Part shown: positions 16,097 through 60,069 of the stretch, piece after piece
How positions within the stretch are numbered: position 1 is the first letter of the stretch
How the letters are laid out: every line of letters begins with the position of its first letter
Source: Roseibacillus sp.
GTDB lineage: Bacteria > Verrucomicrobiota > Verrucomicrobiia > Verrucomicrobiales > Akkermansiaceae
DNA length: 64,000 nt
Assembly (NCBI GenBank): GCA_965242925.1
Contig: CBDEUM010000012.1
Span: forward strand, 32,001-96,000
Reading direction: 5' to 3'
Program-made: the position numbers and the translations under genes
The notes under the pieces: model-generated
Databases searched by the model: none
What the model saw: only the letters and a program-made list of their open reading frames with translations
Told to the model about the DNA's origin: nothing

Positions 16097-16846
16097 CTAG
16101 CCGCGGTTCCGGCGACGCAGGAAGGACAAGGTCAACACGGATCCGAGGAGGGCGAGAAGCGGGGCGCTCGGCTCGGGAATTGGGTTTGAGACGGCATTGA
16201 GCGCCACGTAGTCATGTCCCATCCAATTACCACCGCCGCTGGCGTTGTAATTGATCCCGCGCAATTCGACATAGTTATCGAACCCGGATCCAATCTCGCC
16301 ATTGACGCTCGCAAGGGTGAATTGCGGGGTGGTGATGACGGTGCTGAGGTTCCCGGGGTTGACCTCAACTTCCTCCCCCACGAGGACATTGTTGAAATAG
16401 ACCTCCACGCCGTAACGCTCGGTTCCACCCTGCCCATGCAGGTTGTTCGCCTCGAAGGAAACCGAGAACAGGTCGGTCGGATCGACGGTTGTCAGGTTGA
16501 AGTGAAAGCGGGAGTGATTGTCGGCGCCTGCAAAGGCCCGTTCAGCGCCAAGCTCATTGGTGGCAACGACCCCTACCGGAGTATAGGTGCCTCCGTCGAC
16601 CACGGTGTTGTAAACGCCTGCAAAGTAATAGTCGTCATCGCTCTGTCGGGCTACCAGCGAACTGTCGGGAGCTCCGGGAAGATCATTCACTGCTGTTTCC
16701 TGGACCCAGTTGACGTCAGGTCCACCACCAACCTGACCTTGAGGCCAAGCCCGTCCGGGGGCACCTGCTTGCCAGACAATGGCAGCTTGAGAAACCATTC
16801 CACTAAGCGCAAAAATGGTGATTAAGGGCATATGGGTTTTTGCCAT
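16097..16846 (-). CDS. PEP-CTERM sorting domain protein
   Basis: Signal peptide; C-terminal IPEPS, hydrophobic TM segment, RRRNRG tail. Confidence 0.9.
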   Translation of the reverse strand: MAKTHMPLITIFALSGMVSQAAIVWQAGAPGRAWPQGQVGGGPDVNWVQETAVNDLPGAPDSSLVARQSDDDYYFAGVYNTVVDGGTYTPVGVVATNELGAERAFAGADNHSRFHFNLTTVDPTDLFSVSFEANNLHGQGGTERYGVEVYFNNVLVGEEVEVNPGNLSTVITTPQFTLASVNGEIGSGFDNYVELRGINYNASGGGNWMGHDYVALNAVSNPIPEPSAPLLALLGSVLTLSFLRRRNRG

Positions 16847-17197
16847 GCCTGAAAACTGCCCACTCCCATGGCATGATGCAAACATTCTCATCGCTTATGT
16901 TCGCAAAACTGAGCTCCCACGGTCACATCGTTCTTGATATTCAGCCAATCCTGATTTCGCATGAACCCGCCCAATATCTCCTGGCCCCTTGTTTCCATGT
17001 GAATTTCTTGGACACGCGGCTCCGGCGAGTCCCCAAATAATGTCGCTCACCGCCCTTGATAAATTGGTTCCGCAAACACCCGCACCGGATCAGGCTCACT
17101 CTGGCGAGAGCGGGATATTCCGGGCAGCCCTGCCTCATCACACCCGGGAACTGCGAGTTGCACATCGTGCGCGCCCTGTTACCAACCTAAACGGCCG

Positions 17198-20100
17198 ATG
17201 ACCCTGTCCAAGTCCACCCGAGAACCCCTCGCCCGGGGGAAGCCCAACCCCTCGCCCAATCCTGGCCCTGATTGTTCTGACACTGGCGATGCCGGGCTGT
17301 AAACCGACGCAACGCCCCAACCAGGATTCCATTGTGGGCAACGATGCCGCTCAAATTCGCGAGCTGGTAAGCGTGGAGGAACGGATCCTCGCCCTCACCC
17401 CACAACTCCGCGAGCTCTCGAAAAGCATGCAGAACCTGCGCCTCCCGGACGGCCCCCGGCTGATCCACTTTGCGTCCGAGGTGACCGTGCGGGAAGCAGG
17501 GCAGACTGCGGACACCTCCGCCCCCGGGGATCTCGACCTGCTGCGCCCCCTCCTCAAGGAGGTGGCCTGGATCGAGCAGGCTTCCTTTTACTTCATCGAT
17601 GGGAGGTTTCCGGACGAGGAGGAGGATCTCTTCGAGGGTGAAGTGGGATTCCGTGGACTGGCCAAATTGAAATCCGGCGGATGGCAGGGACTGATCGGCA
17701 AGTTTCTCATCAAGTGGACCAGGGGCACAGGCGAGGAGGGTGCGGAATGGAAGATCAGCGGCTGGGAACAAAAGGAACTAGTGACCATGGCGAGTGCGCG
17801 GCGTCTCTTTGGCGATGCGCTGGGCACCGCCTTGCCCCGCCCGGCCGACCGGGCCCTCGCACATCGCTCTCCCCACCAGGAGGCCGCCATCAAGTTCTAC
17901 CAGGGGGCGCGAAGAAACATCCGCATCCCTACTTCGCTCCGATCTCCGTCAATCAGAAGCCCGGTCTCGCGGTGGTGGACATCGATTCAGATGGCGACGA
18001 TGACATCTATGTCACGGTCCGGATCGGGCGCAACCTGCTCTTCGAGAACCAGGGCGACGGCACTTTCGTGGAAGCGGCGGAGAAGTATGGGATCCACTTC
18101 ACCGGGCACTTCACCTGTGCGCTCTTCGCGGACTTCGACAACGACGGCGATCCGGACCTCTTCGTGGGCCGTAGCTTGAAACCCAGCCTCTACTTCGAGA
18201 ACCGGGCGGGCCACTTTTATCCCGGCCCGCAGCAGAAAGAGTTCCCGATGACGGCGGTCTCGGCTTCCGCGGCAGACTACAATGGCGACGGCTTGCTCGA
18301 TTTGTACCTGCTGACCTACCGTCCGTCGACAATCGGCGGCAACTCAAGTCCCTCGGGCGGCTCGGGCGGGGTCGGAGCACAAACCGAACACTGGCCTGAT
18401 CACTTTTTTCCGCCCGGGATGGCCGCGGAGTATTACCGCCGTCACAGGGAAGCAAACTCGCGAAACGATCCCCAGTTCCCGAACCTCCTCAACCAGATCG
18501 GACCGCCGAACATTCTCTATGTGAACCGCGGCAAGGGGCGCTTTGAAATTGCGGAGGAGAGCACCCAGTTGGGGATCTGGAGAAACTCCCTGCAGGCCAC
18601 CTGGGCGGATTATGACGAGGATGGCGACCCGGATGTCTTCATCGCCAACGACTGGGCGCCCGACAACCTCTTCCGCAACGACGGAGAGTCCGGCTTCACC
18701 GACGTCACGAAGGAGGCCGGCCTCACCGAATTCGGGTTCGCGATGGGGGCTACCTGGGGCGACTACGACAACGATGGCCTGCAGGACCTCTACGTCTCCA
18801 ACATGTTCAGCAAGGCGGGTGCCCGCATCACGAACCGCGTCCCGGGAATCGCCGAGATCTACAAGCAGTCCGCGGCCGGTAATTATCTCTACCGTCAGCG
18901 GCCCAATCACACCTTCGAGCTTGTCTCGGGAGACAAGCCCCCTGCCCTCGCGGTCACCAAGGCAGGCTGGTCGTGGGGTGGCCAGTTCGCCGATTTTGAC
19001 AACGATGGCTTTCTCGATCTCTACGTGCTGAGCGGATACTTCACCGCGCCCGAGGCCGTCTCATCGGAGCTGGACTTGTGAAGTAACCTCTGGCGCACGG
19101 TCGTGCGCACCGACAGCAACCTCGCCCGGCGCAGCTTCCGCTTTTCCGAGGAATGGAGGCGCCGCACCGGGGATGCCCCGCTCACCCCGCAGATTGACCG
19201 ACGCCTGCAGGGAGGCCGGGAGGAAGACGGCCGCTATGTCGTCCATTCCCTGAGCGGAATGGAGCGCAACCACTTCTTCATGAACCGGGACGGAAAAAAA
19301 TTCTCCGATCTCTCGCTGATTTCCGGGATCGACAATCCGGCGGACAGCCGCGGATTCGTCCTGCTCGATTACGATCACGACGGCTGGCAGGACCTCGCCC
19401 TGGTGAACGCCAACGAACCGCTCTTCAACATCTACCGGAATCAGACGGGCGAGGCTGAAGGAAAGGCGGACCACCATGTCATTGCGATTCGCTTCGAGGG
19501 CGGAGCCCGAGGAGAGGCCAGCCCCAACGAGAACTACGCTTGCCGCGACGGATATGGCGCCTTGGTCACCGCCGACCTGGGTGACCTGACGATCAAGCGC
19601 GAACATCGCTGCGGAGAGGGCTTCAGCGTGCAGAACAGCCGCACCATGGTGATTGGGATCGGCTCACGCGAAATGGTTCCCTCCCTCACGGTTCGGTGGC
19701 CATCAGGCAAGACAACCACCCGGGAGAACGTGGCAGCCGGCACCCTTCTCATCGCCTACGAAAATCCCACCCACTCGGGCGCCAGCACGCAGTTCACGCT
19801 GAGCAACTACCACGATGTTGTGCCGCGGAAGCAGGCCCCCGTCCCTCTCACCAGCTTTCCGATCACGGAGCCCGACGCCACCGCACCCATTCGGGTCTAC
19901 ACCACGATGGCCACCTGGTGTGTGGCATGTCAGTCGCATCTCCCGCAGCTCCAGGCCCTGAAGAACGGACTGGGTGAAGGGGCCGCTCTCATCGGCATTC
20001 CGATCGACCCGGACGATAACGCCAAGATGCTCACCGAGTACGCCGAGGAGTGGAAGCCTGCCTATCGCATCCGCGCCGACCTGGAATCCGACGCGCGCGC

Positions 20101-20248
20101 CGCAGTGACAAGGTTTCTTGCCGAGCAATCCGGCGAAGAGGCCGCCCTGCCCTCCACCATCATCACGAACGCCGAAGGCAAAGTCCTCAAGGTGATGTCC
20201 GGCGTGCCGGATGTCTCCATGGTTCGCAAACTCGCGGCCGGTCCTTGA
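17198..20248 (+). CDS. Putative selenoprotein: FG-GAP/VCBS repeats + ASPIC/UnbV + redoxin (CVAC) lipoprotein; in-frame TGA at 19079-19081; frameshift at 17903-17907 and possibly near 17235-17240
   Basis: DxDxDGxxD repeats; ORFs 17681-19081 and 19103-20248 share a frame separated only by TGA; DSRG, GEGFSVQNS, VRWPSG (UnbV); ATWCVAC; lipobox-like LAMPGC at about 17280-17300; start uncertain. Confidence 0.75.
19079..19108 (+). promoter_or_regulatory. UGA plus SECIS-like hairpin
   Basis: TGA + 11 nt spacer + GCGCAC-GGTC-GTGCGC perfect 6 bp stem with GGUC loop. Confidence 0.75.
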
Positions 20249-20253
20249 GCAGA

Positions 20254-23200
20254 TCAACGGGCCTGGACGCGTAAGCGGGAGAAGAAGCGCTCTCCGAGGC
20301 TTCCCGCAGGATTCAGTCGCACCGTCATGAGCACCCGGCCATCTCCGAGATTGACCACGCTGACTACCACCGCCTCCGCTCCGGCAGCCTGCCAGGATTG
20401 CAGGTCGTTGGAGTAGTCGATCTCGATGGTCGCCCCGTCCGCGGCGATACTGACAGGATAGATCAGGGTCGGCAGGGAGAGCATCTGTCCCTCGATATCG
20501 TAGTCCTGCATGGTGAAGGTCGCCTGAAGAGGACCTGCGCCGAGACCATTTCCAAACGCGTAGTCGAGAAGATCCGTAATCCCATTGCCATCCGCATCGC
20601 CCAACGGGTTTACGGGCAGCGGAAGGGCGTCCGTGTCATTCGGATTGCCATCCGGGAGCAGGCTCGCGCGCCAACTCGCAGGGTCATCCGGATCCGGGCT
20701 GGTCTCGGGCGCGATGAGGACGATGCTGTTTCCAAGCCCGTCCGCTTCCTCGGGCCACGGGGCGAGGTCGTTGTAGCGGAACTCCGCGATCGTGCCGTTG
20801 AGAGCGTCCTCCAGTTTCACAGTGTCGCCGCCGTTGTTGAGAGCACTCATATTCGCAAACACGCCGGCCACCGGCAGACCGATGCCGTGCACGCCTTCAA
20901 AGGCGGCGAGATTGCGGACCACGAGAACCCTCGCGCCAGGAGGCAGGCTGGTCACCGCACTGCCGGAGAAGTCGAACTGGATTCCTCCCGTGAAGCGAAC
21001 ATTGGTGAGATCGAGGGTAATCGAATCGCTGATGTTGATGAGTTCAATGAACTCGGTCAGCTCGCTTCCGAGTGGATGATACATGATCTCGGTGATCCGG
21101 AGGTAGAGCTGCGCGTCCGAGGGATTGCCCACGTAGGTAGTCGCACTGATCTCGTTGCCGGCCGAATCCGAAAGGGTGACGGTCTCGCCGAAGCTGGAAA
21201 GGTGCCCCTCGTATGCGCCCTGCACGAAGAGGCCCTCGCCGCCCTTGGGACTCTGAGTGCGGGCGCGGAAGGCGGTGACATCGGGGCTGACGTAAAGCGA
21301 ACTGCCCGCCGGGATGACGGTCCCGCCCTGGAAGGTAAACTCGATCCCGCCATCCAGCTTCCAATCCGAGATGTCGACCGCGATGTCGTTCGGATTGGTC
21401 AACTCGATGTACTCCTCGTCCTGGTTTCCCGAGGGAGGCGCAAACTCGAGCGCTCCGAAGTTGATGATCGGTTCGCCGGGAGGGCCCACTAACTGGGTCC
21501 CGCCGTAAAGTTCGGGCCTGATGATCATGTCGCTGCTCCCGGTGCCTTGGTTGAGACCATGAATAGCGAGGATATTCTGCCCGGCCTTCAGGGCTCCGAG
21601 GTGCTGCGTAATGTTGTAGATGTCGAAGCTCCCGGCATTGGCCTCGTGGCTGGCGTTGAGGGCCGCCGAGTTCCAGGTCACCGCCCCCGGTGCGTTCTCG
21701 GACTGGACCACCGTGCCATTGATGAAGGCCACGAACCCGTCGTCCCACTGCATGCGCAATTCGAGGCTGTCGAAGGCACTGGGATCCGCCACGTTGAAGG
21801 GGATGCGGATGTAGATGCTGTTGTTGCTCCTCATCTGCGTGTTGACGTCGGTGCCGATCAGGGATTGGTAACCACTGGTGCGCTCGTAGCCGATTCCGGT
21901 GGTCCCTGCGATCCAACCGGAGGTGTCGAAGGGCTCGAAGGCCGCGAGTCCGATCCAGGTAAGTCCCAGGCTGTTGTCGGAGGGGACAAAAGCATGCGAA
22001 GGCGCGGGGGCCTCTATCAGGGGAGTAAGCTGGAACGAGGCCGCACCGGTCTGCGGCAGGGGAATCTCCCCACCGTTGCCGACCGTCTGGTTGTTGTATA
22101 TCTCGTTGCGCCGCGCCGGAAGGTACTCGTTCTTCCAGCGCAGGACGGCCTCCGCCATCGACTCCACCGCGGGATTGGTATTCGTGTGGGAAACCGGCGA
22201 ACCGCTGCCCTGGAGCCACGATCCCCACTTGACAAAATCGCGCTGGGCATCCGAGGGGACGATCGAGGGCGGATCGATGAGGGCCGATTGCTCATCCAGT
22301 CGCCGCTCGTACCAGCGTTCGGCGAGAGGGGTGCCCGGCTCCTGGAGATAGCGGTCTGAGAGCGTCCGCATCCTGCGCAGGATCATGGATCGCAGCGCGG
22401 AATTGCCGAACATGTGGGAGACCAATCGGATCGAGCTTCCAGTCACCACGAGACCATGGGAGTATAGATTGTTGTCGAAATAGGTGTTTTGGGAGTTCCA
22501 GACGCGACCGCCGGAGAGGTCGAGGTCCCAGGGCAGGAGCGCCCACTCGTTGGTCTTCCCGGTGTCGCGATAGATATACCAGTTCTTCGAGTGCATATCG
22601 ATGTTCCGGATCACGGAGTTGGCGGCCAGCAGGTTGACGCACTTCGGAATGTCGATGTTGTCGTAGAGATAGTTGATGCGCGCGGTTCCACTCAGGGTGA
22701 GATTGTCGATGAGGGCCTGCAGGTCGGAGTTGTTCTCGAACTTGCGGTTCTTTTTCTCGAAGCCGCTGTTGGCGGAGCCGGTCAACCTGTTGCTGTAGGC
22801 CTTGTAGAGGGCACCATCCCTGTTGAGCCCGGCCCGCTCGAGGTAGATGTCGTCCCCGTCCTCCACAAAATCCGCGACGCTGAAGAAGGCCCCGTTCTGC
22901 TCGACGCGGACGGTGAAGGAGAAGTGGGCGGGGACACCCGACTCGCGCATGATCTCATAGGCAATCGGGTGGCGGACCTTGGACTTGTCCGCCCAGTTGG
23001 TGAGCAGATCGATATCGGCCACGCGCGGGATATCGGGATCGAGGCTCCACTGGAATCGCTGGGTCTTGTTGAAGTCGATGTTATAGCTCTTCTTGACGAA
23101 GCCACCGGTCGATTGACCGTGACGACTGAAGTGCACGTTGTCGTAGAACTGACCGAGGTAGTAGAGCGCGCCGATGGTCCCGTTCGTATTGTTGGCCGAG

Positions 23201-24723
23201 TTCGGACTCGCCACAAACCACTCCAGCACCGAAAGGTTGGTCTGGATCGCCGGGTCGTGACCGACAGTGCCGAAGTACTGGTGTGAATCGCCCGCATCGC
23301 GAAAAGCGGGCTCGCGCGTCTCGTTGCCCACCGCATCAAATGCAGAAAAGCGCCAACGCGTCATTTCACCGGGGACGATCTGGTTGGCCGGGATCACCGC
23401 GGTGTATATGTCATCGCCTGCCACCGCGTCCGCTCCGGTCCCGTTATCGAACATGAAGACCGAGGCTTCGCCGCTGAACATGCGGCGATAGTAGAGCCGG
23501 ACCGAGGTGATCGGACTGACCGAGCCGATCACTTTGGCCGTCACGGTCAAGGCGCCACTCACGGGCTGGGGCGGGTTCTCGGTCACCTCCCTGAAGATCG
23601 GCCCCGACTGCTGTCCGCCGGTATTCGGGGCGCCGGGGGTCGGGTTGTCGAAGTAAACCCATGCCGCCGAGGCCCCCGGGTCCGCGGTGGTCGAGACCGT
23701 CAGGGAGATCTCCGGTTTGCTCCCGGGATCAATGTCCCAATCCATGAACATGGGATTGGCGTCATTGAGAATCATCAACTGACCCCGCTGGGGAGCGCCG
23801 GGATTGTCGACCCAATCCTGCACCAGCGCAGCGATGTCCCAGGTTGCCACCGGGGTCTGTCCCGGCGCAGCGGTGAAGGCCGCCGCCGGTGCGTTTGCCG
23901 CGTAGTAATCCACCAGGTCGCTTCCCGAGTAGGCTGCTGCGATGCTGTCAACTCCGTGATTGGCGTCGGGAACTGCGAAGACTCCGAGATTTGCGGAGAC
24001 CGCGGGTGAGCCAAAGACAGAGTTCGCCACCGCCCCACCCCAGGACAAGGTCGCAGAGTCCACCACACTTCCACCTGGGATCGTGCTGAGGTTGCTGGAA
24101 AAATCGAACCACATGTAAAGCTGCGTTCCCACTGCCCCGCTCCCAAGATCGAAGCTGTCCGCATTCGACGTCTCGCTCGCCGACTGAGTTCCGGTCAGCG
24201 CGACATTCGCGTAGTTTCCCGGCGAGCTCCAAAACGGGGTGAGGTCGAGATTCGAGGACGAACCCGGCACGCCGAACCCGAATGACTGGTCATCGAATTG
24301 CGGTGGATAGACCGGGCCAAACGCGCTCACGATGGTCGTTCCGTCGGGGGCCACCAGGCCGAGGAACTCGCCGCCGGAGCTCAGCCGGAAACTGGTATGG
24401 AGTTGCGAGGCTGGATCGACACGGTCCTTGTTGGAGGCAAAGACCACAAGATACTGGTCCGCGTTCAGGGTGATGGCAGGGAAGGTCCACTTGGTAAGAT
24501 TGGCGGCGTTGTCGGTCAGATGATACCCGTCAAGTTGCACTGGAGCGGGGCCTGGATTATGAATCTCGATCCAGTCCGAAAAGTCACCATCCTCATCCTG
24601 GTAGGAGGTGTCGTTCACCGACATGAATTCGGAAATCAGGGGAGCGGCGCTCAGCAGGGACGCGAAACAGAGCAAGGCCAGGATGCCCGCATGTCGCAGG
24701 CGCAAATTACTTTGGATGATCAC
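20254..24723 (-). CDS. Secreted lamin-tail-domain / CotH kinase-family multidomain protein
   Basis: ISEFMS.N...DWIEIHN (LTD, recurring); KKSYNIDF, D...KNWYIY, LPWDLDL (CotH); C-terminal SNDLQSW...FFSRLRV. Confidence 0.85.
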   Translation of the reverse strand: MIIQSNLRLRHAGILALLCFASLLSAAPLISEFMSVNDTSYQDEDGDFSDWIEIHNPGPAPVQLDGYHLTDNAANLTKWTFPAITLNADQYLVVFASNKDRVDPASQLHTSFRLSSGGEFLGLVAPDGTTIVSAFGPVYPPQFDDQSFGFGVPGSSSNLDLTPFWSSPGNYANVALTGTQSASETSNADSFDLGSGAVGTQLYMWFDFSSNLSTIPGGSVVDSATLSWGGAVANSVFGSPAVSANLGVFAVPDANHGVDSIAAAYSGSDLVDYYAANAPAAAFTAAPGQTPVATWDIAALVQDWVDNPGAPQRGQLMILNDANPMFMDWDIDPGSKPEISLTVSTTADPGASAAWVYFDNPTPGAPNTGGQQSGPIFREVTENPPQPVSGALTVTAKVIGSVSPITSVRLYYRRMFSGEASVFMFDNGTGADAVAGDDIYTAVIPANQIVPGEMTRWRFSAFDAVGNETREPAFRDAGDSHQYFGTVGHDPAIQTNLSVLEWFVASPNSANNTNGTIGALYYLGQFYDNVHFSRHGQSTGGFVKKSYNIDFNKTQRFQWSLDPDIPRVADIDLLTNWADKSKVRHPIAYEIMRESGVPAHFSFTVRVEQNGAFFSVADFVEDGDDIYLERAGLNRDGALYKAYSNRLTGSANSGFEKKNRKFENNSDLQALIDNLTLSGTARINYLYDNIDIPKCVNLLAANSVIRNIDMHSKNWYIYRDTGKTNEWALLPWDLDLSGGRVWNSQNTYFDNNLYSHGLVVTGSSIRLVSHMFGNSALRSMILRRMRTLSDRYLQEPGTPLAERWYERRLDEQSALIDPPSIVPSDAQRDFVKWGSWLQGSGSPVSHTNTNPAVESMAEAVLRWKNEYLPARRNEIYNNQTVGNGGEIPLPQTGAASFQLTPLIEAPAPSHAFVPSDNSLGLTWIGLAAFEPFDTSGWIAGTTGIGYERTSGYQSLIGTDVNTQMRSNNSIYIRIPFNVADPSAFDSLELRMQWDDGFVAFINGTVVQSENAPGAVTWNSAALNASHEANAGSFDIYNITQHLGALKAGQNILAIHGLNQGTGSSDMIIRPELYGGTQLVGPPGEPIINFGALEFAPPSGNQDEEYIELTNPNDIAVDISDWKLDGGIEFTFQGGTVIPAGSSLYVSPDVTAFRARTQSPKGGEGLFVQGAYEGHLSSFGETVTLSDSAGNEISATTYVGNPSDAQLYLRITEIMYHPLGSELTEFIELINISDSITLDLTNVRFTGGIQFDFSGSAVTSLPPGARVLVVRNLAAFEGVHGIGLPVAGVFANMSALNNGGDTVKLEDALNGTIAEFRYNDLAPWPEEADGLGNSIVLIAPETSPDPDDPASWRASLLPDGNPNDTDALPLPVNPLGDADGNGITDLLDYAFGNGLGAGPLQATFTMQDYDIEGQMLSLPTLIYPVSIAADGATIEIDYSNDLQSWQAAGAEAVVVSVVNLGDGRVLMTVRLNPAGSLGERFFSRLRVQAR

Positions 24724-51518: not shown

Positions 51519-54512
51519 GTGAATTACTGCTCTAACAAATTCCCTTCCCGAGGGCTGATGGCTGGCCTCGCTGTAGTCCTCATGGGATTGCTTGCTACCC
51601 AGGCACGAAGCGATTCACGGGATCACGAACAGGGCCTGCAATTCTTCGAGCGCAGGATTCGCCCCGCCCTGGTGACGCACTGCTACGAGTGTCACTCCGC
51701 AGGTTCCAAGAAGGTGGGCGGCAAGCTCTACCTGGATCATGCAGGGGGGCTCCTGCGGGGTGGCGAGTCCGGCCCTGCGATTGTCCCCGGCCGCCCCGGG
51801 GAGAGCCTTTTCATCCGGGCGATCCGGAAAGAGAATGACGACCTCGTCATGCCCCCGGACGACAAACCTTCCCTGCCGGAAGCTGTCGTTAACGATCTTG
51901 TCGAGTGGGTGAGACGCGGGGCTCCCGACCCCCGTGCCTCACCTGGCGGAAAGAGCCCACAGGAAGTAATGCCCGATGAGGCCGCCCTCTGGTCCTTCCA
52001 GCCACTCGGAAAACCAACTCCCCCTCCGCTACGCGACCAGGACTGGCCCAGGAATGACATCGACCGGTTCCTCCTTGCCCAACTGGAGTCCCGGGAATTC
52101 CGGCCCGCCGATGATGCCCCGCCCGAAACGCTGATCCGTCGACTCTACTGCGACCTCGTCGGATTGGCTCCGACCTACGACGAGATCGGTGAATTCCTCA
52201 GCGCCTGCCAGCAGAACAGGCAGTCTGCAGTGGAGGCCCTGGTCGATCGCCTCCTGGCCTCGCCTCATTTCGGTGAACGCTGGGGCCGGCACTGGCTGGA
52301 TGTTGGGCGTTACGGCGAATCGAATGGCAACGATGGACTGGGGCGCAATCCGACCTTCCCCCACGCCTGGCGATACCGGGACTACGTCATCCAGGCCTTC
52401 AACGACGACGTCCCCTACGATCTCTTTCTGAAGCAGCAGATCGCCGGGGACCTCCTCCCCTCCTCCTCCCCCGGGGAACGCCACCGCAACCTGACCGCCA
52501 CCGGCTTCCTCGCCATTGGACACAAACCGGCTGCTGCCATGAACGAGAACTTCGCCATGGACGTGGTGGACGACCAGATCAACACCGTGGCTACCGCGAC
52601 GATGGGACTGAGCGTCGCTTGCGCGCGCTGTCACGACCATAAACACGACCCCATCTCAACCCGGGACTACTACGCCCTCGCCGGGATCTTCAGGAGCACC
52701 GAGACGCTCTGGGGAAAAGCGGCCAACGAGAAACTCACCGCGCCAGCTACCCCCCTCCATGACCTGCAGGTCAAGACCGGGAAACCAGAGGAGAAGTCGG
52801 CTCCGGAATTTGCCAAGGGTTACGGCGAGGCGATCAATGCATTAAAGCCCGTCCTCTACGCGTCCCTGTCGGGTCCGGCGGAAAACCTCGTAATCGAGAA
52901 AGGGGTGACGCTCGCGCCAGGGACTTTTGCCAGGACGGAGGAAGGTCGTCTGCAAGCCGGGTCCGCCCTTCCGGTCAACAGCTATTCCGTCTCCTTCTGG
53001 TTCCGCAATGATCTCGGTAATAGCACGCGGGCCATTACCGCCTACCTCTTCTCCCATGCCGTGCTCGGTGACAAGGAACAGAAGGGAGATCACCTTGGAA
53101 TTGGTGGCACCCATGACCCGGGCCGGTCCGGCAAACTCTTCCTCTGGAACGGCACCAGGCAGAACGAGGGCGCAGCCGGCACCAGGGTCCTCGCTCCCGG
53201 CAACTGGAATCATGTGGTTCTTGCCCGCGACGGCAAGCGCATGCGCCTCTACCTGAACGGAGACCCCAAGCCCGAAATTGATGCCGAGATGCAGGTGGCC
53301 GCCCCTGTAAACGGGACCATCTCCATCGGCGCCCGCAATGACCGCTTCGCTCCTCTCAAGGGTTTCCTCGCTCACCTGGCGGTCTTCGATCGGAGCCTGG
53401 GGCCGGGTGAGGCCAACCGTCTACATGCCGCATCCGGCCAGAAACCGGGAACCCGGGAAGCACCTAGACCAGCTTTCGCGATGGGAGTAAGGGAGGGCAA
53501 GGCGATCACAGACTGCAAGATCAACATCGACGGCAACTCAAAGAAACTTGGATCCAGCGTCCCCCGGGGATTTCTTCCTGCCTGCTCGACGGAACTCAGT
53601 CCCCCCATCATCGGAACGGAGGCGAGCGGACGTCTGCAACTGGCGGACTGGCTCACCCGGGGCGACCACCCGCAGACTGCCCGCGTGATGGCCAATCGGA
53701 TCTGGCTTCATCTCTTCGGCCGTGGTCTGGTGACCACTCCTGATGATTTCGGCGTCTACGGAGCCCGCCCCTCTCATCCCGAACTCCTTGACCACCTCGC
53801 CCGGCGCTTCATGGAGGACGGCTGGTCGACAAAGAAACTGATCCGCACCATTACCCTCAGCCGCAGCTACCAGCTCGACAGCTCCTGCCAGGATAATCGG
53901 TTACTGGAAGCCGACCCGGCAAACGTCCTGGCCGGAAGACACCAGCGTCGAAGCCTCGACGCGGAGTCCCTGCGCGACCGCATCCTGCAGGCTGGCGGCA
54001 CGCTTGACCTGGAACCCGCCCGGGGCTCCGCGATCGATGATCTCGATATCCTCCTCAACTGGCCGCCGGGAGAGGCCAAGTATCTCCATGAACCAAGCAC
54101 CCACCGCAGTGTGTATCTCTGCATGCTGCGCAATGCGTTGCCAAAGGAACTGAGCTCCTTCAACTTCCCTGATGGCATGACCGTGACAGGCCAGCGCAGC
54201 ACGGCCACTCCGCCTACCCAGGCCCTCTTCTTCCTGAACAATCCCCTGCTCATCGCCCAGGCCCGATCCCTGGCCGAACGGATTCTCGCTCAGTCGGTTC
54301 TCTCCGACCAGCAGGCTAATCTCGAATCCAGAGTCACCACCGCCTATCGACAAATCCTGCAGCGGAATCCTTCCAGGGAGGAAGTGACCCGCGCCCTCTC
54401 GCACGTGCACGATCAGGAAGTGGACCTCTCCGGGGCTGGCTCAACCCTCCGGGCGTGGGCAAGTTTTTGCCAAGCGTTATTGGCAAGTAACGAGTTTCGT
54501 TATATTGACTAG
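51519..54512 (+). CDS. Planctomycete cytochrome c / DUF1549 / LamG / DUF1553 protein
   Basis: FFERRIRP..CYECH, GERWGRHWLD, CARCHDHK, RVMANRIW, HPELLD, SNEFRYID. Confidence 0.92.
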   Translation: MNYCSNKFPSRGLMAGLAVVLMGLLATQARSDSRDHEQGLQFFERRIRPALVTHCYECHSAGSKKVGGKLYLDHAGGLLRGGESGPAIVPGRPGESLFIRAIRKENDDLVMPPDDKPSLPEAVVNDLVEWVRRGAPDPRASPGGKSPQEVMPDEAALWSFQPLGKPTPPPLRDQDWPRNDIDRFLLAQLESREFRPADDAPPETLIRRLYCDLVGLAPTYDEIGEFLSACQQNRQSAVEALVDRLLASPHFGERWGRHWLDVGRYGESNGNDGLGRNPTFPHAWRYRDYVIQAFNDDVPYDLFLKQQIAGDLLPSSSPGERHRNLTATGFLAIGHKPAAAMNENFAMDVVDDQINTVATATMGLSVACARCHDHKHDPISTRDYYALAGIFRSTETLWGKAANEKLTAPATPLHDLQVKTGKPEEKSAPEFAKGYGEAINALKPVLYASLSGPAENLVIEKGVTLAPGTFARTEEGRLQAGSALPVNSYSVSFWFRNDLGNSTRAITAYLFSHAVLGDKEQKGDHLGIGGTHDPGRSGKLFLWNGTRQNEGAAGTRVLAPGNWNHVVLARDGKRMRLYLNGDPKPEIDAEMQVAAPVNGTISIGARNDRFAPLKGFLAHLAVFDRSLGPGEANRLHAASGQKPGTREAPRPAFAMGVREGKAITDCKINIDGNSKKLGSSVPRGFLPACSTELSPPIIGTEASGRLQLADWLTRGDHPQTARVMANRIWLHLFGRGLVTTPDDFGVYGARPSHPELLDHLARRFMEDGWSTKKLIRTITLSRSYQLDSSCQDNRLLEADPANVLAGRHQRRSLDAESLRDRILQAGGTLDLEPARGSAIDDLDILLNWPPGEAKYLHEPSTHRSVYLCMLRNALPKELSSFNFPDGMTVTGQRSTATPPTQALFFLNNPLLIAQARSLAERILAQSVLSDQQANLESRVTTAYRQILQRNPSREEVTRALSHVHDQEVDLSGAGSTLRAWASFCQALLASNEFRYID

Positions 54513-54524
54513 GAGAACGAGGCG

Positions 54525-55865
54525 ATGCGAACACTCTCTCGACGTAGATTGCTCCAGGCCACCGGTTGTGGCTTCGGTTCCCTCGCCCTCAATGCCCTCT
54601 GTGGAACCAGCGCCTCCGCAGGGAGCCTCCACCGCAAGACGCCTCCCATCCCGGCTCGGGCCAGACGCGTCATCTTTCTCTGCATGCCGGGTGGACCGGC
54701 TCACCTCGACACCTTTGACTACAAGCCACAGACCGGCAAAACGGAGCATCCGGGATCCGCTTTCCAGTTCAGCCAGCACGGCGAAAGTGGCCTCTGGGTT
54801 TCTGAACTCTATCCCGAAGTGGCCCGGCATGCCGACAATCTCTGCGTGCTCAACGGGATGTATGCCGACACCGGGAATCACGCGCAGTCCTTCCGGCAGA
54901 TGGTCACCGGCGAACGACTGCGCCCTCGCCCCAGCCTGGGCTCATGGGTGAGCTACGGCCTCGGGACTGAGAACGGGAACCTTCCAGGCTTCGTCAGCCT
55001 CAACGCTCACGAGCAGTACGTGTCCTCCGGGGAGTTTCTTCCCGCCCAGTTCACAGGCACTCCCATCGGAACCAACGGTGAGGACATGTCCCTGGCCACC
55101 ATCTCCGATGTGGGCAGCGACCACCTCTCCCAGCGAGCCAAGCGACGCCAACTCGATCTCATCCAGGCCATGAACCACGGTCACCTTGAAGCTCGCGCCG
55201 ATGACCCAAGACTGGAGAGCGTGATCGAATCGATGGAGCTTGGCTTCCGGATGCAGGCCCTCGCCCCCTCTCTGCTTGACGTGAGCACCGAATCCCAAGC
55301 CACCCTCGCGCGCTACCGGGTCGGCAGGAATATCAAGGTGGGCACCTGTCGGCCGTCCGACTTCGGACGCCAGTGCCTCCTGGCCCGCCGCTTTGCGGAA
55401 GCGGGCGTGCGCTTCATCCAAGTTTCCCACAACGGCTGGGATCAGCACAAGAACCACCGCCGCGACCTCAAGGCCAATTGCGAATCGACTGACGCCCCCA
55501 TTGCCGCGCTCCTTGGGGACCTTGATCATCGCGGACTCCTCGACGACACCCTCGTGGTGTGGGGCGGAGAATTCGGGCGTCCCGGCCTCAAACCATCCGA
55601 CAAGAAGGACGAGACGGGTCATCAACCGGCCGGATTCACCTTCTGGCTGGCGGGCGGTGGAGTGAAGCGCGGACTGGCCTACGGCGGGACCGACGGCACC
55701 GGTTCCAAGGCGGTGGAGGGAAAGATTCACTTCCGCGACCTGCACGCCACCATCCTGCACCTCCTCGGTCTGGAACACGACAAACTCACCTTCCCGCATC
55801 AGGGTCGCCTCCACCGTCTTACCGGGCCGGAAGGCGGAAAGGTGGTGAGCGAAATCCTTGCCTAG
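54525..55865 (+). CDS. DUF1501 domain protein (Tat signal)
   Basis: [36 protein letters not shown]. Confidence 0.92.
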
Positions 55866-56013: not shown

Positions 56014-59000
56014 ATGAAACGCACGGTCACCACCCGCCTCTCGTGCACGCACGGCCTGGGACTCCTCCTCGGCCTGGCGATCCTGTTCAGCGCCTGCAAC
56101 GAGAACGGTGGCAACTCCGGGAACGAACCTGCTCCTCCAGCGCGCCAACCGCCCCAACCGGACAAGGGCGCCGCACAAGCTCCTCCCTCTTCTTCGGACG
56201 CCACCCCCAACCCCGTGATTCCTCCCAGCCCCGCCGTGAAGGCTGGCCCCGCGGAAACGGCTCCCGGCCTGGGCCAGGGGAACCTCATTGCTCCTCTCCG
56301 CGATGCCTACGAACGGATGGATCCGGGCAAGGACGGCTGGGCCTCCGAGGCATTCAGCGCCTCGGCCAGCGAACAGTTGCACCTTCTCGAAGACCTCCTC
56401 GGAGGCCCCGATGACATCACGGCTGCCTCCCTGGGAGAACTAGCGGTGGCGGAGGTATCGACCACCGCCCTGCGGCCAGAGAACCTGTCACTCACTTTCG
56501 ACGACGGCCGCTTCCTCGTCCGGCGTCCCCCTGCCTTGCCGGGCCATAATACACCCGGGATCGCAGCCCTCTCCGCCACCCTGAACAAGCTGCGCCCCGA
56601 GGAGGGCTCCATCGATCCCCACATGAAAATCTTCCGCGTTTTCCCCGGGGAAAAAGGCACGGCCAAATGCCTGGTGCTGGTGGACATCCTCAACCATAGC
56701 GGGCAGTCGCGAACCCAGATCAATGCGACCTGGTCCTGCAACTGGAGGCTTTCCCCCGACCAGTCCCCGCTCCTGACCTCGATCGCGCTCACCAGATACG
56801 AGGAAATCACGCAATCCGTCGACTCCCGGCCCCTTTTCGCCGATGCCACCCGGACCCTCCTCGACCGGGAGGATGCATATCACAAACAGTTCCTCCATTC
56901 CTCGGACCACTGGCGGGCCCACCTGCCCCGCGAACTGGGACTCGACCCGGTGGCCAATCATGGCCTTGCCATTGGCGACATCAACGGTGACGGCCTCGAC
57001 GATCTCTATGTATGCCAGCAGGGGGGCCTTCCCAACCGGATGTTCCTCCAGAATCCAGACGGCACCCTGCGCGACATCACCCGGACCAGTGGTGCCGGAT
57101 GGCTTGAATACTGTGCTGCAGCGCTCCTCGTCGATCTCGACAATGACGGCGACCGTGACCTGATCGTTTCACAGGACTTTCGGGTGATGGTCATGGCCAA
57201 TGATGGCAACGGGGCCTTCACCCTTGCCTTCGGTTCCTCCACCAAGGCCCAGTCATTCTCACTGGCAGCTGCCGACTATGACAACGACGGCCTCGTCGAT
57301 TTCTACATCTGCGGATACAACCCGTCCCAGTCCAAACTGCGGGGCGGAGCGATGGGAGAGCCCATGCCTTTTCACGATGCCAACAACGGCGGACCCAACA
57401 TGCTGTGGCGCAACGAGGGCAACCTGGGATTCAAGGACGTCACCGGAGTCACCGGCATGAACGCAAACAACACCCGCTACTCCTTTGCCGCCTCGTGGGA
57501 AGACTACGACAACGACGGTGACCAGGACCTTTACGTTGCCAATGACTATGGTCGAAACTGCCTTTACCGCAACGACGGTGGTTCCTTCTCTGAAATTGCA
57601 GCCGGGCTGCACCTTGAGGACACCTCTTCCGGCATGTCGGTGAGCTGGGCCGACTTCAACCTCGATGGCCAGATGGACGTCTACACCAGCAACATGTTCT
57701 CCAGTGCCGGAAACCGCATTACCTACCAGAAACAGTTCAAGTCCGACCTGCCCGAGGACGTTCGGAAACAATTCCAGCATCTTGCAATCGGGAACTCCTT
57801 GTTTGAGGGCGTTGCCAATAAGCCCTTCAAGGACGTGGGGATCGGAGCCGGGGTCAACATGGGCCGCTGGGCCTGGGGCTCAAAGTTCGTCGATTTCAAC
57901 AACGACGGCCGGGACGATATCCTGGTCGCCAATGGCTTCATCACCACTGCGGACACCGGCGACTTGTGAAGTGTCTACTGGCGGCAGGTCGTGTCGCAAT
58001 CCCCCGTCGATGATTTCTCCGAACCCGCCATCGCCTCCTACAAGCAGGGATGGCGGGCGCTGAGCCGTCTCCTGCACGAGGACCGCAGCTTCAGCGGCAA
58101 CGAACGCCACTGCGCCTTCCTCAACACCGGTAGCGAAGAGGCGAGCTTTGCGGATGTATCAGCTCTCACCGGATTCGGTTTTTCTGACGATGGTCGCGGC
58201 CTTGCCACGGTCGACTGGGACTTTGACGGGGATCTCGACGTCTGGATGACAAACCGCAACGCCCCTCGGGTGCGTTTTCTCACCAATCACACGCCGCCCG
58301 GCCAGAAGTTCATTGCCATTAAGCTCCGCGGGAACGGCAGGACCTGCAACCGTGACGCCATCGGGGCGCGCCTGGAGCTAACCCTCGAAGGGGTGGCACC
58401 AGCCACCCGCATCCGCACCCTGCGCTGCGGGGAGGGCTTCCTCTCCCAGTCCAGCAACTGGGTTCACTTCGGCATCGGTAAAGCCACCGGAATCACCAGC
58501 CTGGTAGTCAAATGGCCTGCCGGACCGGCCGAGAGCTTCACCGGCCTGCAGGCGGGTACATTCTGCCTCATCCAGCAGGGCACCGGGGCGTCTCGCCTCT
58601 TCTCCCCACCAGAACAGCGCGTTGTCTTGACTCCGCGGGAACAGACTCCCCTTCCTCCCACCGGAAACACACGTACCATCGCTCCCGCAGGACTTCCCCT
58701 GCCCCGGCTGGAAGTGATCGGGGAAAACGGGGAACTGCAACCTTACGCCCCCGACGGAAAACGTCCCCTCGCCATCAATATCTGGTCAAGTATCTGCGCA
58801 GCATGTGTGGCCGAACTATCCGAGTGGTCAGAGCACCGTGACGATTTGGCAGGAGCGGGCCTCGACGTGCTCACGCTCAGTACCGACCACCTCGATGGCG
58901 CGGCTCCACCGGAAGCGACGCGGGCCGCCCTTGCCAGGACCAGTTCCCCCTTCCCCAACCTGTCCATCTCGGAAGCCGCCCTCAAGGGTCTCGACTTCCT

Positions 59001-60069
59001 GCAGCGCTCCGTCCTCGATCGCAGGACCCCCCTCCCCGTTCCGAGCACTTTCCTGATCAACACCGACGGGGAACTGGTGGCCTTCTATCGGGGGCCGGTT
59101 GCCGTCAACCAGCTCCTCCAGGATCTGCGCCTGACGGGAACAGAGCAGCCCCCTGATGCCCGACGCAATGCCGCCATCCCCTTCCCCGGGCGCTGGATCG
59201 GCAAGGCCGTCCCGGGACGACCCAATCGCGTCGCTTCGATCATGGCTGACCACGATGAAGTCGAACTCGGGGCTGCCTACCTGGAACACTGTGCTTCCCT
59301 CCTCGAATCAAAAGCAGATGATCCAGACAGCAGACGCAATCTCGGTGATATCTACTACGTCGCCGGACTGCTGAACGGACTCAAGTCCGATCGCCGCGAA
59401 CTCGCCATCGAGCAACTCTCCCGCGCTCGTGAGCTGATGCCGCAGGACGTTCGCATCCGTTTGGAACTGGGGCGTCAATTCTTCCTGGCGGGACAATTGC
59501 ACAACGCCGAGCAGGAGATGGGCAAGGCTGCCGAGATCAACCCCGGTGACCTGGCACTGCTCATGGATCTCGGGTTGATGCGTTTTCGCCTGGGAGAATA
59601 CGAGAAATCACATGAGGTTTACAGGAACGTCATCCGGGCCACGCCCCGCAACGGTCTGGCCCGCTATCACCTGGCCAATAATGAAGTCCGGCTCAGGCGA
59701 TTGCCAGAAGCCATCGAAAACTATCGCAGGGCTCTTGCTCGTATTCCGGATCTCACCGAGGCCGCCAACAACCTGGCATGGATCCTCGCCAGTCATCCCA
59801 ATGAGAATCTTCGATCCCCGGAAGAAGCGCTCACCATCACCACCCGCCTCTGCCAACAAACCCGGGAGCGATCCCCGCTCTATCTGGACACCCATTCGAT
59901 CGCCCTGGCCAATCTCGGGAGGTTCCAGGATGCCATCGCGACCGCCAACAAGGCGATTGCGCTCATCCCTCCACGGAACGCGTCCGCGATCGATGGCATC
60001 CGCGGACGCATCTCCCTCTACGCCGCCAGCAAGCCCTACCGTGAACGTGGATGGAAAATGGAAGATTGA
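56014..60069 (+). CDS. Putative selenoprotein: FG-GAP/VCBS repeats + ASPIC/UnbV + redoxin (CAAC) + TPR lipoprotein, about 1351 aa with TGA 57967-57969 read through
   Basis: Lipobox LFSAC; FG-GAP repeats; ORFs 55972-57969 and 57991-60069 share a frame; DGRG, DAIGA, GEGFLSQSS, VKWP; WSSICAAC; TPRs with NNLAWILA. Confidence 0.82.
57967..57997 (+). promoter_or_regulatory. UGA plus SECIS-like hairpin
   Basis: TGA + 11 nt + GCGGCA-GGTCG-TGTCGC (6 bp including one G-U). Confidence 0.75.

Follow-up and report, generated by a model that had tools for sequence, protein, structure and literature searches.

Probable selenocysteine codons in two diverged paralogs of a CRTAC1-like lipoprotein family of Roseibacillus

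The window analyzed here, a stretch of 64,000 nucleotides (nt) of Roseibacillus sp. (assembly GCA_965242925.1, contig CBDEUM010000012.1, positions 32,001 to 96,000 of the forward strand), contains two paralogous genes, named here gene A and gene B, which are ~30% identical and carry an in-frame TGA followed by a short hairpin. Judging from sequence comparison, both TGAs are very probably selenocysteine (Sec) codons in diverged paralogs of an exported, CRTAC1-like lipoprotein family. The architecture of this family is an FG-GAP beta-propeller, followed by an UnbV/ASPIC domain and a TlpA/ResA-like thioredoxin domain, with tetratricopeptide repeats (TPR) being optional. The parts of both genes are the following, in positions of the window and with SECIS standing for Sec insertion sequence:

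17342..17901, + strand: 5' part of gene A, in the frame of open reading frame (ORF) 17289-18179 up to a 1-nt deletion, placed by alignment with the relatives L122 and L134
17903..19078, + strand: FG-GAP propeller part of gene A, in the frame of the TGA (Pfam FG-GAP_3, 5 stretches, E 2.4e-45)
19079..19081, + strand: in-frame TGA of gene A, read as a probable Sec codon (TGA at this column in 27/27 distinct gene-A-subfamily sequences)
19082..20248, + strand: C-terminal part of gene A, with a propeller blade, UnbV_ASPIC and a TlpA/AhpC-like thioredoxin domain with CxxC
19093..19108, + strand: putative SECIS-type hairpin of gene A, stem GCGCAC / GUGCGC, loop GGUC (19099-19102)
19919-19921 and 19928-19930, + strand: Cys codons of the gene A CxxC
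20246-20248, + strand: true stop of gene A, a TGA
56014..60069, + strand: gene B, the intact paralog, with a predicted lipoprotein signal, FG-GAP propeller, probable Sec, UnbV_ASPIC, thioredoxin-like CxxC and TPR
57967..57969, + strand: in-frame TGA of gene B, read as a probable Sec codon (residue 666, numbering from 55972)
57981..57997, + strand: putative SECIS-type hairpin of gene B, stem GCGGCA / UGUCGC (one G.U pair), loop GGUCG (57987-57991)
58111..58113, + strand: Cys714 of gene B (in ERHC), candidate partner of Sec (frequency of Cys here: Sec forms 85%, sense-codon forms 7%)
58795..58806, + strand: CxxC of gene B (Cys942, Cys945) in the TlpA/ResA-like domain
60067-60069, + strand: true stop of gene B, a TGA

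The surroundings of the codon are ...SSELDL-TGA-SNLWRTVVRTD in gene A and ...TGDL-TGA-SVYWRQVVSQS in gene B, in one frame throughout. As stated in the first-pass annotation of this DNA, the two TGAs lie in the same alignment column, GACTTGTGAAGT has the same letters in both genes, each 6-bp stem begins at the 12th base past the TGA, and gene A ends at 20248. Its start for gene A at 17198 does not hold, because that frame stops after 34 codons and homology to the intact ortholog is found only from ~17342. Also, the two TGAs were taken there for what would otherwise be two independent random stops, while a single ancestral codon, inherited by both paralog lineages, is the better description. Two copies of the motif GAYTTRTGAAGY-N6-TGG are present in the window, where 100 shuffles gave an expectation of 0.00, and its 12 matches in the whole genome are all at family sites (12/12).

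The genome of origin, searched by tblastn with 261 residues around the gene B site, gave 17 alignments that cross the column; the 13 good ones all have TGA, and the remaining four, at 24-29% identity, are too weak for a meaningful alignment. Among 41 genomes (40 relatives plus the genome of origin), 24 match the gene B query and, among the matches listed, every one spanning the site has one TGA; the sole match listed as having none covers residues 147-261 only. Fetched loci of relatives have TGA in 28/28 cases, counting those that align across the site (locus L034 has no such alignment and is outside this count). The gene-A subfamily gave 31 matches with one TGA each, save for a partial match, and its 27 distinct sequences all have TGA. 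With one genome per species, TGA was present in 61/80 loci, labelled as Planctomycetota, Verrucomicrobiota (Akkermansiaceae, Roseibacillus) and Acidobacteriota (Thermoanaerobaculia, Holophagales, Bryobacterales), and the 19 non-TGA loci, mostly of Terriglobia, have Asn (9), Ala (6), Ser (2), Gly (1) and Tyr (1). Metagenome contigs, scanned with the Cys-bearing homolog P0003, added 20 true relatives, all 20 with TGA and all six hairpin pairs. Neither TAA nor TAG was found at the Sec column in more than 100 diverged members from genomes and metagenomes of three phyla, and Cys codons (TGY) were found in 0/80 genome loci, the metagenome true relatives likewise having only TGA.

At their real ends, the family genes use TGA, TAA and TAG. 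A genome-wide reassignment of TGA was considered and ruled out, as genes A and B and six other paralogs terminate in TGA. The Leu codon that precedes the Sec codon (e.g., 19076-19078 and 57964-57966) is UUG or UUA in 81/95 TGA forms and CUN in 14/19 sense-codon homologs. Many members of the gene-A subfamily (e.g., L136, L128, L138) have U-S-C after DL, which forms a UxC motif; gene A has U-S-N. Two typical TGA members (L079 and L091) are on contigs of metagenome-assembled genomes labelled as Flavobacteriaceae and Enterobacteriaceae, labels that may reflect mis-binning.

In the hairpin of the gene-B type (89 TGA sequences, 80 distinct), 96.5% of 480 cells are paired, having both sides changed in three of the six pairs (12 cells), a level reached by 0/500 shuffles; slid controls gave 13.5-67.3% pairing. 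With the U of UGA as base 1, five versions of pair 18-28 are seen (G.U 35, A-U 28, G-C 10, C-G 2, U.G 2), the third base of the Arg codon varying in step with the initial base of codon 9 (Ser, Pro or Ala), and pair 20-26 goes from A-U to G-C in seven sequences through two amino acid changes, WRQVVS to WRRV(A/T)S. The gene-A type (27 sequences) has 95.3% of its cells paired, again with 0/500 shuffles as high; seven sequences replace C-G by A-U through the change from WRTVVR to WSTVVL, and seven others with WRSVVR have a U.U mismatch.

According to the first-pass annotation, programmed recoding would be refuted by a hairpin equally present in homologs without TGA, which is not what was observed. 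The sense-codon homologs (n=19) have 58.8% of cells paired, with no double changes, and a slide of -2 gives them 64.0%. All six pairs are formed in 75/95 TGA sequences (15 more have five pairs) vs 0/20 sense-codon sequences, and the five TGA sequences with two pairs or fewer have the gene-A register or another stem. The comparison had been framed in terms of Ser- or Cys-encoding homologs; Ser is indeed among the residues at the Sec column, but these are mostly Ser, Ala, Asn and Gly together, with Cys in only 4/120. One alternative is that the hairpin simply follows from encoding the conserved peptide DLxSFFWRQVV in a GC-rich genome, without any role at the RNA level. It is favored by the single-sequence z-scores near 0 (see below) and by the motif being conserved also in sense-codon homologs, where it fixes 2/6 pairs by itself (A-U in 18/19 and G-C in 16/19). 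However, the full stem is confined to TGA forms, and when the sequences were recoded synonymously with peptides kept, it appeared in 2.4% (maximum 7.4%, 200 rounds) vs 81% observed, with codons 4-11 being redrawn from the codon usage of the genome of origin though the sequences stem from many genomes. The WRxVV codons therefore do not dictate the stem. Also, synonymous sites are fixed within the stem and free beyond it: codon 9, inside the stem, is TCG in 69/95 sequences, and Ser codon 11, beyond it, is TCA (21), TCC (15), TCT (14) or TCG (13). The first base of codon 10 is C in Sec forms (Gln, Arg, Pro, His, Leu) and A in the others (Lys, Asn), and the paired amino acid changes described above keep base pairing. 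A mere peptide by-product is thus hardly credible, and these comparisons indicate that the hairpin is selected as RNA.

The geometry is similar to that of fdhF of Escherichia coli, in which an in-frame UGA is likewise followed by a SECIS within the coding sequence. In both systems, base 15 is the first of the upper stem when the U of UGA is base 1, leaving a spacer of 11 nt, and both have an apical GGUC, at bases 22-25 in fdhF and 21-24 in the family. In fdhF, G23, U24 and the bulged U17 contact SelB, and the distance range of bacterial SECIS elements is 16-37 nt. Unlike fdhF, the family stem has six continuous pairs without the bulged U and without the conserved lower stem that includes the UGA, and its loop has 4 nt (gene-A type) or 5 nt (gene-B type).

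The genome of origin (G000) encodes a tRNA-Sec with anticodon TCA (C30:304340-304433), selB (287.5 bits, above the cut-off) and selD (366.6 bits), the last with an in-frame TGA of its own. This selD (G000:C14:573853-574776, L009:1531) has the TGA in ...SSCAG-U-ASKLG..., and an 8-bp hairpin with a CAGGUC apex begins ~28 nt past it. The selD site resembles those of genes A and B in that a hairpin, in selD with CAGGUC at its apex, follows an in-frame TGA; it differs in its 8-bp stem and in a distance between UGA and hairpin that is greater by ~15 nt. The selA gene is present in 18/19 congeners. Across the 41 genomes searched, those with clear family members have selA, the exceptions being G000 and G006 (70% complete), and none of the 14 relatives lacking selA has a clear family member, one weak match aside (G032, E 3.5e-4); these are counts without a statistic, from genomes that are related and not independent. 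In G033, a single-contig genome, selA (4468210-4469529) lies between the TGA-bearing loci L032 and L124, ~10-13 kb to each side (C1:4458673-4482257).

The programmed recoding proposed for these TGAs is supported by their conservation, by a covarying hairpin specific to TGA forms, by the Sec machinery and by the fdhF-like geometry. The messenger RNA would form the 6-bp hairpin 11 nt past the UGA, with its GGUC apical loop acting as a minimal bacterial SECIS; SelB.GTP.Sec-tRNASec would bind it and bring Sec to the UGA in the A site, and the product would be one long protein instead of two fragments. Binding by SelB and incorporation of selenium at these particular UGAs are presumed from the sequences. 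A different possibility is that the UGA is read by a near-cognate tRNA (Trp, Cys or Arg) without any Sec machinery, the hairpin being a general stimulator of read-through. Hairpins 3' of stop codons can promote read-through, and many residues are tolerated at the column in homologs, as this explanation would expect; nevertheless, in the 41 genomes searched the family was found only alongside Sec genes, its stem start and GGUC loop agree with those of fdhF, the hairpin of selD in the same genome has a CAGGUC apex, and an ordinary residue would give no reason to hold TGA for so long. Near-cognate decoding is thus considered extremely improbable.

The Pfam scan of genes A and B gave FG-GAP_3 and UnbV_ASPIC above the cut-offs, and also TPR repeats in gene B. 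The AhpC-TSA scores (22.8 and 24.8) are below the gathering cut-off of 26, and the match to the TlpA profile is weak; no NCBIfam selenoprotein model matched the family proteins. An AlphaFold2 model of gene B residues 296-1076 has a pLDDT of 94.1 and a pTM of 0.94. In this model, Sec (model residue 371) is predicted at a helix start right after a propeller strand, with further blades beyond, and the CxxC likewise lies at a helix start. The best solved match of the gene B model by Foldseek is murine CRTAC1 (9etn_A, E 3.1e-27, TM 0.71 on target), and the C-terminal domain matches ResA (1st9) and TlpA (1jfu, 4txo) with TM 0.67-0.80. The FG-GAP propeller and the ASPIC/UnbV domain are shared with CRTAC1. 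Unlike a full match, the alignment with 9etn spans 595 columns of the 781-residue model, and the thioredoxin part is matched by the separate ResA and TlpA chains. CRTAC1 is not known to contain Sec, a fused thioredoxin domain or TPR. Similarly to TlpA/ResA oxidoreductases, the C-terminal domain of the family has a thioredoxin fold with CxxC; unlike them, it is fused to a propeller. An N-terminal hydrophobic stretch ending in Cys (LAILFSAC in gene B) is present in 9/13 paralogs of the genome of origin, six found by pattern and three (C28, C37, C20) by eye, and probably corresponds to a lipoprotein signal.

A competing view is that the TGA is a true stop between the genes of a conserved pair, the first encoding the propeller and the second the ASPIC and thioredoxin parts, with a hairpin serving termination, re-initiation or stability of the messenger RNA. 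Gene callers do split these loci, all candidates in Table S9 of Kim et al. 2016 (PMC4807772) are given there as annotated as two genes, and GTG codons follow the TGA (ORFs from 19103 and 57991). These GTGs, however, are Val codons of the WRQVV motif, and the frame and this highly conserved motif cross the site; homologs were found as single full-length proteins in 2823 cases. As the modelled Sec lies between propeller blades, a stop at that codon would cut the propeller. In addition, the codon is TGA and never TAA or TAG in the more than 100 diverged members, and the family co-occurs with selA in the 41 genomes (except for G000 and G006), so that a true stop is regarded as very improbable.

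With regard to the function of Sec, its column in 120 full-length homologs has Ser (34), Ala (29), Asn (25), Gly (19), Cys (4), Glu (4), Tyr (2), and Gln, His and Arg (1 each). The other residues were compared, in one alignment, between 86 Sec forms and 139 others (4 with Cys at the column and 135 non-Cys). The first Cys of the thioredoxin CxxC is present in 99% of Sec forms vs 11% of the 135 non-Cys forms, the second in 98% vs 72%, and Cys714 in 85% (73/86) vs 7%. The full CxxC is found in 84/85 Sec forms having the region; three Sec members of the genome of origin (C34, C13:146637 and C22) are without any CxxC. A FastTree tree (224 rows, with one sparse row dropped, the gene-A subfamily left out and the Sec column masked) gave two clades with support of 100, one with 85 Sec, 4 Cys and 20 other forms and the second with 114 others and one Sec form. 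Inside the Sec clade, the full CxxC is missing in 10/24 non-Sec members vs 1/85 Sec members having the region. The association of Sec with CxxC is suggestive.

Here it is proposed that Sec may act as a selenylsulfide redox site, with Cys714 as its partner in the gene-B type, and that the fused CxxC domain would service this site extracytoplasmically. A wider version of this proposal is offered tentatively and is rather unlikely to hold in full: a self-contained extracytoplasmic selenium redox module, in which the propeller Sec, at a position that relatives do not fill with Cys, would form a selenylsulfide with Cys714 that is recycled by the fused TlpA-like CxxC, the family having expanded in marine Verrucomicrobiota and Planctomycetota to around twelve lipoproteins in each genome. 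If true, these aerobic heterotrophs would be unexpectedly rich in selenoproteins, and the CRTAC1 fold would have a new enzymatic activity. The retention of CxxC and Cys714 in Sec forms offers a testable hypothesis on the function of bacterial CRTAC1-like proteins.

Several findings weigh against Sec at these codons or against the redox role given to it. The folding energy of the two hairpins is no better than that of dinucleotide shuffles (z = 0.01 for gene A and 0.20 for gene B), with 96/200 and 115/200 shuffles, respectively, folding at least as well; the fdhF hairpin in the same energy test reached only z = -1.29. Because the energy of a single hairpin is uninformative in this way, the case for the hairpin rests on comparison. 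An Rfam scan of both loci by E-value found no SECIS family, just one chance miRNA match, and selA was not found in the genome of origin, which is 89.87% complete, with TIGR00474 and PF03841. The scarcity of Cys at the Sec column (4/120) is unusual for a catalytic Sec. The tree implies at least 14 state changes between Sec and other residues, the link of Sec with the full CxxC derives largely from a single deep split, and an independent-pairs test, of low power, failed to reach significance (median p of 0.25 with CxxC and of 0.625 with Cys714). Finally, gene A as assembled has a frameshift (the 1-nt deletion) and a replaced 5' end, and contigs of RNA runs do not reach across its TGA (19079).

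The state of gene A was compared with that of L122, its intact ortholog in a congener, which is 99% identical and has 630 open codons before the TGA. Compared with L122, gene A has one base missing at 17901/17902, a 9-nt in-frame insertion, and no relation upstream of ~17341. At window positions 17189-17341, homology to both close relatives of gene A ends, the 5' ~150 codons of the ortholog being replaced by unrelated sequence. A second copy of gene A in the genome of origin, L134 (G000:C17:47915-51697), is 99% identical and has a 47-nt insertion; it may represent a gene duplication, variation between strains or an artefact of binning. Thus, gene A of the window may reflect either faulty assembly or decay. 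Its being a pseudogene, a decaying duplicate whose TGA and hairpin are relics in this cell, is possible although not the likelier case: the deletion, the unrelated 5' sequence and the insertion in the C17 copy would fit decay, but the coding sequence is 99% identical to that of the intact ortholog and the Sec site is identical in both. Moreover, the extra base that restores the frame at 17901/17902 is present in contigs of 4/4 public runs covering the region. The contig of the best DNA run is a C17-like variant, and the deletion was confirmed by no run, which makes an assembly error at least as likely as decay, bearing in mind that rare variants can drop out of run contigs. The TGA of gene A itself is bridged by contigs of three DNA runs from three studies, with no change there among the differences listed.

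The mechanism proposed for genes A and B is ordinary for bacteria, and the family is widespread, multi-copy and barely documented. Its interest lies in its size, in the position of Sec at a non-Cys column and in the possible link to the fused thioredoxin domain. No paper describing it in its text was found in the literature searched, which among supplements comprised Table S9 of PMC4807772. This table has four candidates, matching in their domain description, which by that description presumably belong to this family; the closest non-Sec match has Gly at the aligned residue, and bSECISearch found a SECIS in 3/4 candidates. Unlike the present analysis, it is a candidate list only, without covariation, distribution or partner-Cys analysis. 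The available text of a 2026 review (PMC13188914), including the 119 families of its Table 1, has no entry with FG-GAP, ASPIC, VCBS, repeat, TPR, propeller, PF13517, PF07593 or PF01839, and no such family is mentioned in the accessible text of the BSepDB paper (PMC13326102). In the thioredoxin-fold selenoproteins catalogued in Table 1 of that review, Sec is inside the CxxC, and the Sec of gene B is 276 residues upstream of it.

A search strategy based on Cys/Sec pairs is described in PMC13188914. Searches of this kind miss the family because its Sec aligns with Ser, Ala, Asn and Gly rather than with Cys, and this probably explains its absence from catalogues. As there are 13 sites in one genome, the selenoproteome sizes of Verrucomicrobiota and Planctomycetota are probably underestimated. 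Furthermore, annotation pipelines halve these genes, and in many genomes from sea and soil the descriptions of around a dozen large exported proteins each are consequently wrong.

Directly upstream of gene B, the window has a PSCyt1/DUF1549/DUF1553 gene and a DUF1501 gene (51519-55865). A conserved operon with PSD1/DUF1501 genes was considered and discarded as a trait of the family, because among the 84 DUF1501 and 72 PSD1 matches in the genome, only gene B (and perhaps the C37 copy) adjoins one. Upstream of gene A, a 264-residue ORF (16097-16891, - strand), negative in the Pfam scan, ends in ...PIPEPSAPLLALLGSVLTLSFLRRRNRG, which resembles a PEP-CTERM sorting signal. On its other side, gene A is convergent with a 1489-residue ORF (20254-24723, - strand) that has three lamin-tail domains in addition to a CotH kinase domain.

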